Source: a virus. Taken from it: a stretch of 23,277 bases of DNA. How positions within the stretch are numbered: the first letter of the stretch is position 1; each line of letters starts with the position of its first letter. Of this stretch, positions 17,851 to 23,002 are shown one piece after another. The stretch lies in UHGV virus genome UHGV-0070450; one strand, given 5' to 3'. The notes beneath the pieces are model-generated. The model saw only the letters and a list, made by a program, of their open reading frames with translations. It was not told where the DNA came from and did not search any database. A program made the position numbers and the translations under genes.

Positions 17851-18374
17851 ATGTACTCCAATGAAGAAACCAGCGAAATAGCTGCCTTCATTCGTAGTAA
17901 ACCTTTTTCATCAACGCAGTAATGGATTCTTTGAAGAGTCGCAATCAATACAACTCACTAATGGAGAGACTTGTCTCACGCATGAGACAAATTTCCCGTT
18001 TGAATTAATGGACACTATAGAGGGACAGAATGCCTTCCTCACTCGAATCACATCAATTAAGGAAGTTCAACATGTTTCATTCCACAAGTCATCAGGCTGT
18101 AATTATGGCAGCATCAGTTTGTGCCACAGACCTTTTCCGCTTCACTTTGAGCCTGATTCATTTCTACCTGACCGGCTCGCTTCTATCTTTTTAATCCCCG
18201 CTTTATCCAAATTGCATTGCCAGAATGCCGACAACAGACTGACATTCAAATCCTGACTACCTCCAATAGTCTGACCGTACACCTATATAGTTTTAATTTT
18301 CATCAATCCATTTAACTATCGTTTAATTGTTGTCACATAGGATTCTGCCGTTTTTAACAATGCAGGATAATAAG

Positions 18375-18665
18375 ATGAAAAAAATGTTGTTTTCTGCCGC
18401 TCTGGCAATGCTTATTACAGGATGTGCTCAACAGACGTTTACTGTTGGAAACAAACCGACAGCAGTAACACCAAAGGAAACCATCACCCATCATTTCTTC
18501 GTTTCGGGAATTGGACAGCAGAAAACTGTTGATGCAGCCAAAATTTGTGGCGGCGCAGAAAATGTTGTTAAAACAGAAACCCAGCAAACATTCGTAAATG
18601 GATTGCTCGGTTTTATTACTTTAGGCATTTATACTCCGCTGGAAGCGCGGGTGTATTGCTCATAA
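18375..18665 (+). CDS. bor: Bor lipoprotein (lambda bor-like serum-resistance outer-membrane lipoprotein)
   Basis: MKKMLFSAALAMLITGCAQQTFTV... with lipobox LITGC; strongly matches recalled lambda Bor. The track ORF starts further upstream at 18327; 18375 has the AGGA Shine-Dalgarno. Confidence 0.85.
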   Translation: MKKMLFSAALAMLITGCAQQTFTVGNKPTAVTPKETITHHFFVSGIGQQKTVDAAKICGGAENVVKTETQQTFVNGLLGFITLGIYTPLEARVYCS

Positions 18666-18699: not shown

Positions 18700-19161
18700 C
18701 TATCTGCACTGCTCATTAATATACTTCTGGGTTCCTTCCAGTTGTTTTTGCATAGTGATCAGCCTCTCTCTGAGAGTGAAATAATCCCGTTCAGCGGTGT
18801 CTGCCAGTCGGGGGGAGGCTGCATTATCCATGCCGGAGGCGGTGGTGGCTTCACGCACTGACTGACAGACTGCTTTGATGTGCAACCGACGACGACCAGC
18901 GGCAACATCATCACACAGAGCATCATTTTCAGCTTTCGCATCAGCTAACTCCTTCGTGTATTTTGCATCGAGCGCAGCGACATCACGTTGGCGCACCTGC
19001 ATGTCAGTAATTGTCGAGTTCGCCAGCTTCAGTTCTCTGGCATTTTTGTCGCGCTGGGCTTTGTAGGTAATGGCGTTATCACGGTAATGATTAACCGCCC
19101 ATGACAGACAGACGATGATGCAGATAACCAGAGCGGAGATAATCGCGGTTAATCTGTTCAT
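18700..19161 (-). CDS. rz: Rz i-spanin
   Basis: 153-aa ORF with N-terminal membrane helix ([20 protein letters not shown]) and coiled-coil periplasmic domain; follows the endolysin gene with a 4-nt overlap. Confidence 0.85.
18759..18941 (-). CDS. rz1: Rz1 o-spanin, embedded in the +1 frame of Rz
   Basis: [49 protein letters not shown]... with lipobox VVGC and a proline-rich stretch; near-identical to recalled lambda Rz1. Confidence 0.8.
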
Positions 19162-19634
19162 ACCTCAATCTCTCTGACCATTCCGCCCGCTTCTTTGAAT
19201 TTTGCAATCAGGCTGTCAGCCTTATGCTCGAACTGACCATAACCAGCGCCCGGCAGTGAAGCCCAGATATTGCTGCAACGGTCGATAGCCTGACGAATAT
19301 CACCGCGATCAATCATCGGTAAAGCGCCACGCTCTTTAATCTGTTGCAGTGCCACAGCGTCCTGGCTTTTCGGAGAGAAGTCTTTCAGGCCAAGCTGCTT
19401 GCGGTAAGCATCCCACCAGCGTGAAAGAAGTTGATAACGGCCTGCAGCTGTTGATTTGAGTTTCGGGTTTAGCGTGACAAGTTTGCGAGGGTGATCGGAG
19501 TAATCAGTGAAGAGTTCTCCACCGACAATAACGTCATAACCGTGGTTACGTGTCGGTTGTCGCCCGTTATCCGTTCCCTCTGACCATGCCACCATATCCA
19601 GGAAAGCTTTACGCTGGGAATTTAGTACCTGCAT
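19158..19634 (-). CDS. R: Endolysin, lambda R-type lytic transglycosylase
   Basis: 158-aa ORF ...[80 protein letters not shown]... closely matches recalled lambda R. Confidence 0.9.
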
Positions 19635-19637
19635 AAA

Positions 19638-19964
19638 TTACTCCTTAGAGCCACCAAACTTGTTACCGATTACTCTCATTGCAGCCCCACGAATAGCATC
19701 AACACCGATCAGCCCCACCCCACCACCAATGGCAACAGATAGTGATTTAGGCCATCCGACATACTCAAGAGCGGATGCAAAAGTCAGCGTCAGAGCGCCA
19801 CAGAGTAGAATTTCGAGTGTTTTTCGCTTCCAGCCGCCACCACCGCCAAAATAGGCAATACGTAAACCAGCCATAACAATCGACATAATCACTGCGCCCA
19901 GCGGTGTGTCTCCACGCCACCAGCTCTGGACCAACTCCAGCCATGTATTTGGGTTATGAGGCAT
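19638..19964 (-). CDS. Holin (lambda S-family-like)
   Basis: 108-aa ORF directly upstream of the endolysin gene with hydrophobic segments (GAVIMSIVMAGLRIAYFGG..., ILLCGALTLTFASAL..., VAIGGGVGLIGV...). Confidence 0.75.
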   Translation of the reverse strand: MPHNPNTWLELVQSWWRGDTPLGAVIMSIVMAGLRIAYFGGGGGWKRKTLEILLCGALTLTFASALEYVGWPKSLSVAIGGGVGLIGVDAIRGAAMRVIGNKFGGSKE

Positions 19965-20110
19965 TTGTAGTTATCTCTCACCTCGCTGATACAGCAGGTG
20001 CAAATTGAGGAAACATCATGTACCGCAAATCAGAAGCGGAAACGTCAAAGAAGCCGAGTCAATGGATAACTGCGGGATAGGCTAGGACCAAGGAATCCCC
20101 AGACCCAGAA

Positions 20111-20138
20111 ACGACAAAACCCGCTCGATGGCGGGTTT
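20111..20138 (-). terminator. Intrinsic terminator on the minus strand upstream of the holin gene (tR'-like position)
   Basis: Perfect 8-bp stem AAACCCGC / GCGGGTTT with 6-nt loop; on the minus strand it is followed by TTTTGTCGTTTCT. Confidence 0.45.
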
Positions 20139-20255
20139 AAGCTGTGTGGCGAAGTGAGCACACTTAACAGATTACGATATTTTTTGCGTACGCGTTAGTG
20201 TTTTGATAGAATTTTCAGCCACATAAAAATTCATTCTTATAATTCGGGATATATA

Positions 20256-21431
20256 ATGGATATAACTTGTTTAGAATGTGGCAATGTTCTTGACGACCCA
20301 ACTGTAGCTTGCGATAAATGCGGTGCCACGCCTCATGTTGTAGTGCTGGGCAAACAATCGTACTTTCCTATTGGTGCTGTAACAGCAAATCTTGAAAAAA
20401 ATGATTCAAGAGCATTTGATTATCGATTAGGTGAAGTTTGGGATCTAAAAAATGAAGTCACATCTGAATTCATAACCAGAATTGAGAAAAAATTTAGCCG
20501 AAAAAACAAATTTCATAACTTCCTAGACTCAGATCACAACCCTTCATCCATTCCTACGATCCTAAAAAAATACATTAATAAAAATAATGAATTCATTGAT
20601 TTATCTAGAGCTATAATAGAGAAGCTTAAACATAATGCTAATAACGAATCGAGAGTTGCCCAACTTCAGGGGGGGAGCGTTGTTTTCATCCACTATAAGT
20701 CTACCGAACCAGAGGATTTGGGGAAACTTCTAATCGTAATGGTTGATAAACAAAGCGCCTATGACTTTGATTCGGATAAGTTGACCCCAACAAGATTAAA
20801 TCCAATTAATACCGATGCCTTACGGCAGGCTGCGATGTTCGATTTAACTTTATTCGAAGCCAGTTATCCAGAAAACAAGGGTGACTCATATGTACATTTC
20901 TTGCAAGGTAAATCTAAAAGCGATTTTTTCAAAGACTCATTAGGTTGCCGACATGATTCGGACAATAAAAGAAGCATTCAGCAATTATTCAGTGCTATAG
21001 ATATTTTTGCTAGTAAAAACTCACTCGGTCGTGTACTGCGTGATACTATTGACAATGAAGTTAAATCCTTACTGGAAAAAAAATCAAAAGATAAACACGG
21101 AAATAAGTCCGTTAAGATAGAGGATATTTCAAAAATAATTGACTCATGCCTGACTGATTCACACAAATGTAAGGGAACGTTTGTCGATTTTGTTAATCTT
21201 AATGGTTTCCAGATTGACCCTCAATTTGAACCAACTCCTAAAGCAGCTGAAAGCGCGCTTACAATTGAAGTGGCAGATAACGACAATAATTTTAAGTTGA
21301 AAATAATGCGTGGAGCTATTGGAGACGAAAAGTCAAATAAGCCTGTAATTCTCACTGACAACAAATGCGAAATTGTGATAAAATTGAGTCAGGCAAATTA
21401 TGATGAACTCAAAAGATATAGAGACAGCTAA
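20256..21431 (+). CDS. Cargo protein: N-terminal zinc ribbon fused to an NdpA/YejK-like (NA37 nucleoid-associated) domain
   Basis: 391-aa ORF. N-terminus has CLECG...CDKCG (two CxxC pairs). The central region (GGSVVFIHYKS..., AMFDLTLFEASYPENKGDSYVHFLQGKSKSDFFKDSLG...) aligns by eye to E. coli YejK (GGFVLFCHYRY..., [38 protein letters not shown]...). AT-rich, opposite strand to the phage genes. Confidence 0.65.
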   Translation: MDITCLECGNVLDDPTVACDKCGATPHVVVLGKQSYFPIGAVTANLEKNDSRAFDYRLGEVWDLKNEVTSEFITRIEKKFSRKNKFHNFLDSDHNPSSIPTILKKYINKNNEFIDLSRAIIEKLKHNANNESRVAQLQGGSVVFIHYKSTEPEDLGKLLIVMVDKQSAYDFDSDKLTPTRLNPINTDALRQAAMFDLTLFEASYPENKGDSYVHFLQGKSKSDFFKDSLGCRHDSDNKRSIQQLFSAIDIFASKNSLGRVLRDTIDNEVKSLLEKKSKDKHGNKSVKIEDISKIIDSCLTDSHKCKGTFVDFVNLNGFQIDPQFEPTPKAAESALTIEVADNDNNFKLKIMRGAIGDEKSNKPVILTDNKCEIVIKLSQANYDELKRYRDS

Positions 21432-21433
21432 TA

Positions 21434-22648
21434 ATGACAATTGCTGATGACTTATCAAGATTAGCGCAGATTATTAACGGAGCCTCAAGCAGAGTTGAGG
21501 GCTACTACACTGTCATAAGTCTTGAAGAAAGCATTGTTATTGTAAATAGTTCTGAAATAATTAGACTGTTACAATCTATAGGTTATAAAAAGGCAACAAC
21601 CTGCATCGAAAATAATGAAATTTGGCTAGATCGCCAAGCTTCATCTTGGGATGATGCTATAATTTATGAGAATGTTGAGTCTTTTTGGTCTAGAGTAAAC
21701 ACCCAAAACGCTCTTCCGAAAAATTATATCATCGGAACGCCGTTAATACTCCCTACTTCTAAGAATGAAAGCATCGAAAAAATCCATATTTTCTTTATGT
21801 GGAAAGATATCCTTTCATTAATTTCTGATCATCATAACAGTGACTGCTCTGTCTTATTTTTCACCAATGAAGACAAAAGTTATACAGTCGAACTCACGCA
21901 TTTTTTACAATATAGCGAGATTAATCGCTTATCGAACTCGTCTCTTAAATATGAAATTATAAAGGAGCTTCTCGACACAATAAAAATCAATGATTTACAC
22001 AAAAGCGAGCGCAAGCTCGTTATACGCTCAGCCATAAACGAAGTATTTAAAGCAAATGGTACGTTCAATTTCTTTGACTTGCTTAACTCTACTGAACTCG
22101 TCAGGAAAAAATATGATGAACTATATGAGATTTACACAAAGAGGTTTTCTGTAAATAAAATTCTTAACGAACTCGATGAGAAAAATCTTGAGTTCACGAG
22201 TAAAATTAACGAATTCATATCATCTAATCAGACAAAAGCATTGACTATTCCCGGTGCATTAATAGCAGCTGGTGGCTTAGTGAAGGCTAATGAAACAACC
22301 GAAGCAATATTGATTATCGCAGGACTTTGGATGATAAAAAAAGTCAATTACATTTCTATTGAGATATTCAATGAAACATTCGACAACTTACGTTCTCGAG
22401 TGGAGTCCGCTTTCGATAAGTATTTAAAGTTTGAAGAAAATAAAGAAATCAAAGATAATGCAGATAGTATTAAGAGTAGCATTACAGGTTTGATTGATAA
22501 AGCTAAAAAAAGGATGAGAACTGTTAAATATCTCGCATCAGCCATGTTTTATGGAGGCCTTATTTACGTTGGATATAAACAGTTCCCAGTCTTTTTTGAA
22601 AAATCGGCAGTAAATCTATTTTATTTTTTATGCCATACTATAAGCTAA
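21434..22648 (+). CDS. Cargo protein of unknown function with two predicted C-terminal transmembrane helices (candidate membrane effector)
   Basis: 404-aa ORF starting 2 nt after the upstream stop (translationally coupled); hydrophobic stretches LTIPGALIAAGGLV / AILIIAGLWMI and YLASAMFYGGLIYVGY; no recognisable catalytic motif; AT-rich. Confidence 0.65.
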   Translation: MTIADDLSRLAQIINGASSRVEGYYTVISLEESIVIVNSSEIIRLLQSIGYKKATTCIENNEIWLDRQASSWDDAIIYENVESFWSRVNTQNALPKNYIIGTPLILPTSKNESIEKIHIFFMWKDILSLISDHHNSDCSVLFFTNEDKSYTVELTHFLQYSEINRLSNSSLKYEIIKELLDTIKINDLHKSERKLVIRSAINEVFKANGTFNFFDLLNSTELVRKKYDELYEIYTKRFSVNKILNELDEKNLEFTSKINEFISSNQTKALTIPGALIAAGGLVKANETTEAILIIAGLWMIKKVNYISIEIFNETFDNLRSRVESAFDKYLKFEENKEIKDNADSIKSSITGLIDKAKKRMRTVKYLASAMFYGGLIYVGYKQFPVFFEKSAVNLFYFLCHTIS

Positions 22649-22984
22649 CATTGCTAAACAGCCATCAACAAACCCCATTGCAGTTTGCAGTTCCTTCCTA
22701 ATTGTGCCATCAGAGCATTTTCTCTTCTTCGCAATAGTGCGTAATGAGATACCGATAACAAAGTGGGCGATGATGAGCTCATATTCCTCTGGTTTATACC
22801 TTCTCAACCGAGCCACACAACTGTCTATCATGATGCCTTCGTCATCATCACACTGAATCCGTGACTTTTTGCCATGAGGTAAAAGTCCCTTGAAACCAGC
22901 CGCTATCGGCTGCCAGTCCACTCCGCTATTGTCTGAAGCAGCCCAAGCTCCCCAACGATCCATTACTTCATACATATCACGCAT
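22628..22984 (-). CDS. Late-gene antiterminator Q (Phage_antitermQ-like)
   Basis: MRDMYEVMDRWGAWAA...WQPIAAGFKGL... matches the RWGAWA / IAAGFKGL signature recalled for one Q family. Start taken at the ATG with GGAG Shine-Dalgarno (track start 22999 is a TTG). Confidence 0.7.
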   Translation of the reverse strand: MRDMYEVMDRWGAWAASDNSGVDWQPIAAGFKGLLPHGKKSRIQCDDDEGIMIDSCVARLRRYKPEEYELIIAHFVIGISLRTIAKKRKCSDGTIRKELQTAMGFVDGCLAMLAYSMA

Positions 22985-23002
22985 CAACTTTCTCCACAAA
23001 AT

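Follow-up and report, generated by a model that had tools for sequence, protein, structure and literature searches.

A probable late control module beside the holin gene, separated from Q by a slot for exchangeable cargo, in a prophage of Escherichia coli

We analysed the UHGV virus genome UHGV-0070450, a stretch of 23,277 nucleotides (hereafter the window, that is, the whole 23-kb stretch), which contains the complete arrangement of the antiterminator gene Q, an inserted cargo and the holin gene. We are confident that the late promoter, the site at which Q is loaded and the terminator form one module of about 90 bp, at about 20109-20207 on the minus strand, directly upstream of the holin leader. 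An earlier note on this sequence had described Q as separated from the lysis genes by 2.6 kb of antisense cargo, and this is what we find: 2,664 bp lie between the Q stop and the holin start, and they carry two low-GC (guanine and cytosine) genes on the plus strand. The note had offered two places for the late promoter. The first, the interval 20139-20255 in front of the holin, is supported by comparative evidence, by the layout of pR' in phage 21 and by a mapped start site in DLP12, a prophage of E. coli K-12. The second, a promoter after Q with antisense readthrough of the whole cassette, is not supported: no DNA past Q is conserved, and the homology already ends about 30 bp inside the gene.

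In the mechanism that we propose, Q would be expressed from the early rightward operon at a distance of 2.5 kb and would act in trans as a diffusible protein, so that late transcription need not pass through the inserted genes. These, transcribed from a divergent promoter of their own, would occupy the slot between Q and the module, and the terminator of the module, tR', would end a leader RNA of about 50 nt unless Q has modified the RNA polymerase. Antisense readthrough of the cassette is not required. The order of Q, cargo and module is a common arrangement that is already known, neither broken nor exotic, and the established mechanism of Q is not overturned. What appears to be new, as far as can be judged from comparison, is the palindromic Q site with its specificity classes, the promoter that has an A-tract but no -35 element, and the scale of the cargo slot.

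Results

Location and conservation of the module

The first set of relatives consisted of 80 IMG/VR loci that were retrieved via the Q protein. A pattern search on the transcribed part of the module enlarged it to 205 loci, of which 180 have a Q gene upstream. A search of 5,426 complete E. coli genomes finds the Q–holin arrangement in 99, at a coverage of at least 80%. In APEC O2-211, the icd (e14) site is occupied by a prophage that matches the window with 100% identity; this prophage combines a lambdoid early region with a contractile tail.

The identity of Q itself is clear. It matches Pfam PF06530 with E=3e-47 (160 bits, cut-off 26), which places it in the Q21 family, and it shares 45% identity with QuuD of DLP12. 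A profile built from ten Q relatives matched only the phage 21 Q chains in PDB (E=8e-10). Note that these alignments end at Q21 residue 99-100, before the proposed recognition helix, and the helix regions are thus outside the comparison.

In all relatives compared, the homology on the holin side has a sharp left edge at CTAACGCG (window position 20198). Where relatives carry other cargos, conservation between Q and the holin is confined to the DNA from CTAACGCG through the terminator, and the module adjoins every one of the 46 cargo inserts found in the 180 loci. The first ~95 nt of the conserved block, including the terminator, persist when a different lysis cassette follows, and in such loci the homology ends just past the terminator. 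We conclude from this persistence that the block travels with Q and not with the holin.

Seven loci, with several distinct Q sequences, carry no cargo at all. In six of them the module starts 6-12 bp past the Q stop, and in the remaining one (L163) module and gene overlap by the final 27 bp of Q; this is the comparison with cassette-free relatives that the earlier note had suggested. The premise of that note, that pR' and the Q-utilisation site qut always lie directly after Q, is therefore right for these seven loci. As a general rule it is too strong, since the other 173 of the 180 loci carry cargo and the same order is annotated in DLP12 and in phage 434. In the window, the distance from the module start (20198) to the Q stop (22628) is 2.43 kb, so that the module is not immediately downstream of Q here, as it is in the cargo-free relatives.

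The other side of the cargo looks different. After Q, no DNA is conserved between the relatives. Among relatives with other cargos, the homology of Q ends at ~22660, about 30 bp before the stop codon. The last residues of Q are specific to the cassette, and one cargo junction lies inside the gene. Because the homology ends there, a promoter right behind Q would imply 46 independent inventions, one for each unrelated cargo. The natural reading is that cassettes are exchanged by recombination between the Q gene body and the module. The Q proteins that stand beside cargo have variable C-termini without the ...L(E/D)MD (...LEMD) tail that is conserved in other classes (alignment A3); this C-terminus seems to be dispensable, or every cargo brings a workable replacement. 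The convergent overlap of ORF B (the second cargo open reading frame) with the end of Q, previously estimated at about 21 bp, is exactly that (22628-22648).

Table 1. Positions of the proposed late control module and of neighbouring genes in the window
Feature	Position (strand)	Remarks
Rz	18700-19161 (-)	
Endolysin	19158-19634 (-)	
Holin, first late gene	19638-19964 (-)	lambda family; Pfam PF05106, E=6e-25
Leader from tR' to the holin start codon	19965-20108 (-)	conserved only with the same holin type
Intrinsic terminator tR' (predicted)	stem 20117-20138 (-), T-rich tail to about 20107-20109	stem AAACCCGC/GCGGGTTT, loop CATCGA
AAGTGT (AAGAGT in most relatives)	20160-20165 (-)	-10-like hexamer across the start; possible sigma-dependent pause element
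Putative late start	20161-20163 (-), within 1-2 nt	projected from the DLP12 start site
Putative late promoter -10, TAATCT	20169-20174 (-)	module positions 25-30
Module start and proposed Q-binding element	about 20180-20198 (-)	CTAAC, palindrome GCGTACGC (20186-20193), second A-tract
Upstream A-tract, ATCAAAA	20201-20207 (-)	about -45 to -39 from the putative start, at the position of the proximal UP-element subsite
Candidate cargo promoter, TTGATA-16-AAAAAT	20203-20230 (+)	from consensus scan only
Cargo gene 1, ORF A	20256-21431 (+)	zinc ribbon and YejK/NA37 nucleoid-associated protein; DS-1 first protein
Cargo gene 2, ORF B	21434-22648 (+)	DS-1 second protein; C-terminal membrane helices
Cassette-specific 3' tail of Q, last ~10 codons	22628-22660 (-)	right-hand cargo junction
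Q antiterminator	22628-22984 (-)	118 amino acids from ATG as in RefSeq (frame open from TTG, 22628-22999); QuuD-like short subfamily of the Q21 family

Proposed promoter, start site and terminator

The putative -10 element was identified by comparison. Among the 50 unique module variants from the 205 loci, one hexamer has the form xAxxxT in all 50 and TAxxxT in 96%, and its three inner bases vary freely; an invariant TAnnnT with free inner bases is what we would expect of a -10 element. Further upstream, each of the module positions -9 to -3 carries an A in 59-85% of the 41 independent upstream contexts, which are otherwise unrelated (non-homologous) to each other, and this A-tract may act as an UP element.

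A start site is available from E. coli MG1655. Cappable-seq lists a single start within the DLP12 module, on the plus strand at U00096.2 576452. With an offset of 777 bp between U00096.2 and U00096.3, which we take to be the correct one, this start becomes U00096.3 577229, an A located 7 nt after the DLP12 hexamer TATGCT; an error of 1 in the offset would still give 6 nt. The offset agrees with a second start in the same table, which then falls 7 nt past a TATTAT hexamer. In the window, the G residues that flank the corresponding base are the more likely starts, judging by the sequence.

The same DLP12 data contain a far stronger start (score 90 vs 1.7) at U00096.2 576081 on the plus strand (~3859 of locus L086), just outside the nmpC start codon and reading towards the module and essD. 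It may underlie the numbering of the "-121 to +650" DLP12 regulatory fragment in PMC7918800. In the Term-seq supplement of PMC7815308 there are no DLP12 entries for essD, for nmpC or with coordinates beginning with 5772, and a full-text literature search for essD start sites gave nothing useful.

The terminator that the earlier note had picked out at 20111-20138, about 150 bp before the holin and in the right polarity, is found again: its hairpin is part of the minimum-energy fold (-17.8 kcal/mol, z=-2.4) and lies ~147 bp upstream of the holin ATG. A terminator is present at about +25 to +50 in all but 5 of 69 downstream variants, and several non-homologous hairpins are used at this place. As unrelated hairpins form the terminator, its function seems to have been kept while its sequence was replaced. 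The window thus has a predicted promoter and, within tens of nucleotides of it, a predicted terminator that precedes the late genes. At its 5' end, over the first ~20 nt (20144-20163, minus strand), the predicted late RNA folds into a small hairpin, GUGGU...GCCAC in most relatives, although the locus set is biased for this stretch; with three substitutions in the hairpin, the window retains the fold. In the whole window, no Rfam family passes its gathering threshold, and the matches around the module are at chance level.

Several observations weigh against our assignment. No -35 hexamer is conserved in the class of the window (partial ones exist in the DLP12 and phiP27 classes). A consensus sigma-70 scan detects no minus-strand promoter in 20139-20255, which reproduces the earlier failure to find a -35/-10 pair by eye. 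We see no clear -10-like pause element at +2 to +15, the only candidate being AAGWGT at -3 to +3. The start within the DLP12 module is weak (relative read score 1.7) and belongs to a module of a different Q class, and the window has a T at the base that corresponds to the DLP12 start A. The short palindrome that we propose below as the Q site is unlike the two direct 8-bp repeats of phage 21. Finally, the pattern with which the 205 loci were collected fixes part of the transcribed region, so that the conservation there is partly by construction.

A palindromic element that follows the class of Q

Between the upstream A-tract and the -10 element there is a palindrome of 8-10 bp, at about -31 to -24, followed by an A-tract or a T-tract. 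In the window it is GCGTACGC, a sequence that occurs only once in the 23 kb. The element occupies the position where a -35 hexamer would be expected.

The class of the palindrome tracks the putative recognition helix of Q one-to-one: in 66 unique Q proteins there are six helix classes and six palindromes. The helix SDGTIRK, found in the window, goes together with GCGTACGC, and SDGYIGK, found in QuuD, with ACGTACGT. The remaining pairs are SDCWVGR with ACAATCGT, (D/S)EKxIRIE with GCGGTCCGC, SLNQVVIR with TGTTATAACA and SHTQxLKR with GGAATTCC. Furthermore, one Q protein with a divergent scaffold (its best match, the Q of phiP27, has 38% identity) also pairs an EKxIRIE helix with a GCGGTCCGC site. 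Such a match between helix and palindrome is what a protein and its operator would be expected to show, which is why we propose the palindrome as the Q-binding element. In the records of phage 434, SfII and K-12 that we examined, the DNA site of this Q subfamily is not annotated. The six helix–site pairs would provide a testable specificity code for the subfamily.

How the polymerase would be held for Q can be read in three ways: the TAnnnT hexamer itself may be the pause element, AAGWGT may catch sigma at about +9/+10, or Q may engage the polymerase already at the promoter. The assignment of the module is independent of the choice among them. AAGWGT is conserved in DLP12, SfII, phiP27, Stx2a_1447 and a Klebsiella phage, and together with the GG that follows it loosely resembles the AACGAT-GGG of lambda. 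As for the third reading, the palindrome is at the -35 position and has the same distance to the -10 as the Q-binding element (QBE) of phage 21 has to the pause element. This leads us to the tentative and, taken as a whole, somewhat improbable idea that the short QuuD-like Q engages RNA polymerase at the promoter, replacing sigma region 4, with no separate pause downstream, and that it both stimulates a promoter devoid of a -35 element and leaves with the polymerase as an antiterminator. If this were true, the six helix–palindrome pairs would be a natural set of orthogonal switches.

Alternative readings of the conserved block

Potentially, TAnnnT could be the pause element of a promoter built as in phage 21, with the true -10 located 10-14 bp upstream, in the A-tract or at TATCGT (20174-20179), and a start at ~20167-20172. 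The gap of 11 bp between the palindrome and TAnnnT is close to that in phage 21, where 12 bp separate QBEd from the pause element, and the class of the window does have an additional good -10-like hexamer, TATCGT/TATTGT, 5 bp upstream. However, only 60-72% of the variants have xAxxxT at the upstream hexamers, which do not hold in the DLP12 and phiP27 classes, and the sole start within the DLP12 module is 6-7 nt past TAnnnT, as for a promoter -10, with none listed 10 nt further upstream. The K-12 start site thus argues against a promoter slightly further upstream for which TAnnnT would be the pause element, and we consider this geometry unlikely. As candidates for the -10 itself, the A-tract hexamer and TATYGT were ranked second and rejected; both fail in the DLP12/phiP27 classes and have no start-site support.

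It is considerably less probable that the block is only an insulating terminator with a leader, that the late genes are reached by readthrough from the early operon or from a promoter on the cargo side, and that Q is inactive here. The much stronger DLP12 start near the nmpC end, which reads towards the module, would fit such a scheme, as would a response of the DLP12 lysis operon to RpoE as well as to Q, which is reported in PMC7918800 with reference to other work. Yet the invariant TAnnnT with a start 6-7 nt after it and the one-to-one match between palindrome and helix would be left unexplained, and so would the place of the block within a few bp of Q, or overlapping its end, in the cargo-free loci.

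A late promoter within the 3' end of ORF B, immediately behind Q, from which a Q-modified polymerase would read the 2.5-kb cassette antisense, is the least plausible reading: it has the textbook pR' position of lambda and phage 21 in its favour, and the AT-rich cargo offers promoter-like hexamers (e.g. 22331-22358, minus strand), but these occur at chance level in the scanned region (12 matches vs 11.5 expected), nothing past Q is conserved, the last ~10 codons of Q vary with the cargo, the Q-class-specific palindrome lies away from Q, and cargo-free relatives place the module right after Q.

Comparison with known systems

The proposed module can be compared with the cassette of phage 21 (Q21; PDB 6P18/6JNX; record OL657228), whose Q belongs to the same protein family, PF06530. 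In that record the -35, a 16-bp QBE, the -10, the start, the pause element and the terminator are found within 85 bp, in size and order as in the module. The module would share with it a protein-specific element between the -35 position and the -10, and a terminator that ends a leader of ~50 nt. On the other hand, the Q of the window has 118 amino acids and Q21 has 162. The module of the window has neither a TTGACA -35 nor a clear pause element at +2 to +8, as phage 21 has, and it is 2.5 kb from Q, compared to 7 bp for the phage 21 cassette.

In DLP12 the order is quuD, antisense nmpC, the module between nmpC and essD, and then the lysis genes; the architecture is identical to that of the window. 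At the sequence level, too, the transcribed part of the module matches almost completely, as does the terminator. The differences are the palindrome (ACGTACGT), the porin cargo, another type of lysis cassette and a partial -35, TTTACG, with a 16-bp spacer, which the window lacks. Phages 434 and PA-2 show the same order with an antisense porin as cargo (nmpC/lc); it is annotated in 434, and the module matches the lc-porin record of PA-2. SfII has the same module with another cargo.

The pR'-qut-tR' region of lambda, which produces the 6S RNA, follows the same logic: its Q site precedes the -10, the polymerase pauses close to the promoter, and a terminator stands before the holin. It differs in that its Q belongs to an unrelated family and its leader has 194 nt compared to ~50 nt. 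Direct alignment of the module with the late regions of lambda and phage 21 gave no significant similarity, only an identity of 13 nt in the Klebsiella copy: TGGTCACTTCGAC in the module of the Klebsiella phage (L091, 3544-3556) equals 13 nt of the lambda 6S leader (L093, 860-872, about +73 to +85). Past the lambda pause element there is a similar GGTTAATTCGC. These resemblances may be accidental or reflect a shared motif.

The module is also found in phages that carry Shiga toxin genes. In Stx2a_1447 (L090, 3501-3588) it precedes a methylase, tRNA and stx2 genes, with a two-gene antisense cargo between Q and the module. phiP27 (L092, 3503-3555) has the module's transcribed part ahead of stx2e, preceded by an upstream element that is its own and of a different class, and a sense-strand gene lies between Q and the module. 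Since the same module precedes stx2 in Stx2a_1447/WGPS2-type phages and in phiP27, the class of Q and the palindrome should bear on toxin expression. The cargo, too, may affect Shiga toxin expression in phages of the Stx2a_1447/phiP27 type.

The cargo of the window

From its sequence, the cargo is a DS-1 anti-phage system, consisting of a YejK-like protein and a membrane protein. ORF A matches Pfam PF04245 (E=1e-23) and the NCBIfam model NF053868 DS1_1_antiphage (451 bits, cut-off 330), and ORF B matches NF053869 DS1_2_antiphage (375 bits, cut-off 315); both scores are above the equivalog cut-offs for DS-1. The two genes are on the same strand and 2 bp apart, and their GC content of 32-40% contrasts with ~50% in the phage flanks. 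PADLOC, in a 2023 library older than DS-1, found no match for the cargo.

The DS series originates from DefensePredictor (PMC13092281), which has a YejK-domain system among its 42 validated transcription units. The report on type II PANGU (bioRxiv 10.64898/2026.04.06.716658) describes a YejK-like nucleoid protein together with a membrane effector that has a C-terminal transmembrane region. In layout, the DS-1 pair resembles this system (Pag2A/Pag2B); ORF A has an N-terminal zinc ribbon in addition.

The -35 of the candidate cargo promoter (TTGATA, plus strand) overlaps the A-tract upstream of the late module (20201-20208). The late promoter and the candidate cargo promoter would therefore stand back to back, and they may compete or share upstream contacts. 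No plus-strand terminator is predicted downstream of ORF B. In a lysogen, the DS-1 transcripts probably run antisense into Q (22628-22999), which could damp leaky expression of Q; the antisense promoter paQ of lambda and phage 21 offers a comparison.

An interchangeable slot between Q and the module

The DS-1 pair is one of many cargos. The 173 loci with cargo contain 46 distinct intervals, of which 43 are antisense to late transcription, two are sense and one is mixed, and in the 80 IMG/VR loci the distance from Q to the holin ranges from 1.3 to 4.0 kb. The slot would extend from the Q gene body to the module, with the phages swapping cassettes that are almost always antisense.

When representative cargo proteins were compared with defence libraries, 11 of the 20 matched models linked to defence or, below the cut-off, models of validated systems (DS-1, DS-8), and about half had no match in these libraries. 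Among the matches are KwaB (Kiwa) and NsnA, and the candidates PDC-S20, PDC-S33, PDC-S42, PDC-S60, PDC-M53A (twice) and PDC-M68A. The PDC-S20 cargo is KAP/PifA-like, the PDC-S33 cargo is RelA/SpoT-like, and the PDC-S60 cargo also matches the DS-8 model, below its cut-off. The NsnA/PD-T4-2-like cargo adjoins a predicted DNA methyltransferase, which was called by eye from its motifs. Lipoproteins, the nmpC porin and another YejK pair are also among the cargos.

With many unrelated cassettes between the same conserved flanks and a share of known defence genes, the slot is a hotspot, similar to those described in P2 and P4 phages (Rousset 2022, PMC9122126; Vassallo 2022, PMC9519451). As in these, a fixed slot between conserved phage sequences holds swappable, mostly two-gene, low-GC anti-phage cassettes. 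What differs is the place: in these lambdoid/e14-like prophages, the slot separates the gene of an antiterminator from the promoter that it targets, with one junction within the coding end of Q. We found no description of a cargo slot between Q and the module in the literature that we searched.

For annotation this means that in e14-like, SfII-like and DLP12/434-like prophages, as well as in some Stx prophages, the late promoter should be sought beside the first late gene and not beside Q. The stretch between Q and the first late gene can be regarded as a cargo slot that is rich in defence systems and in uncharacterised two-gene cassettes.

Two further observations concern other parts of the prophage. 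A bor/iss serum-survival lipoprotein gene (18327-18665, plus strand; annotated as iss in APEC O2-211) is located antisense just past Rz/Rz1 and is a second antisense cargo gene of the late region. Outside the window, between the prophage integrase and icd (L005, 34495-37664), there are genes for a DarT-like ADP-ribosyltransferase and a macro-domain protein, which look like another toxin-antitoxin pair of the defence type, at the border of the prophage.

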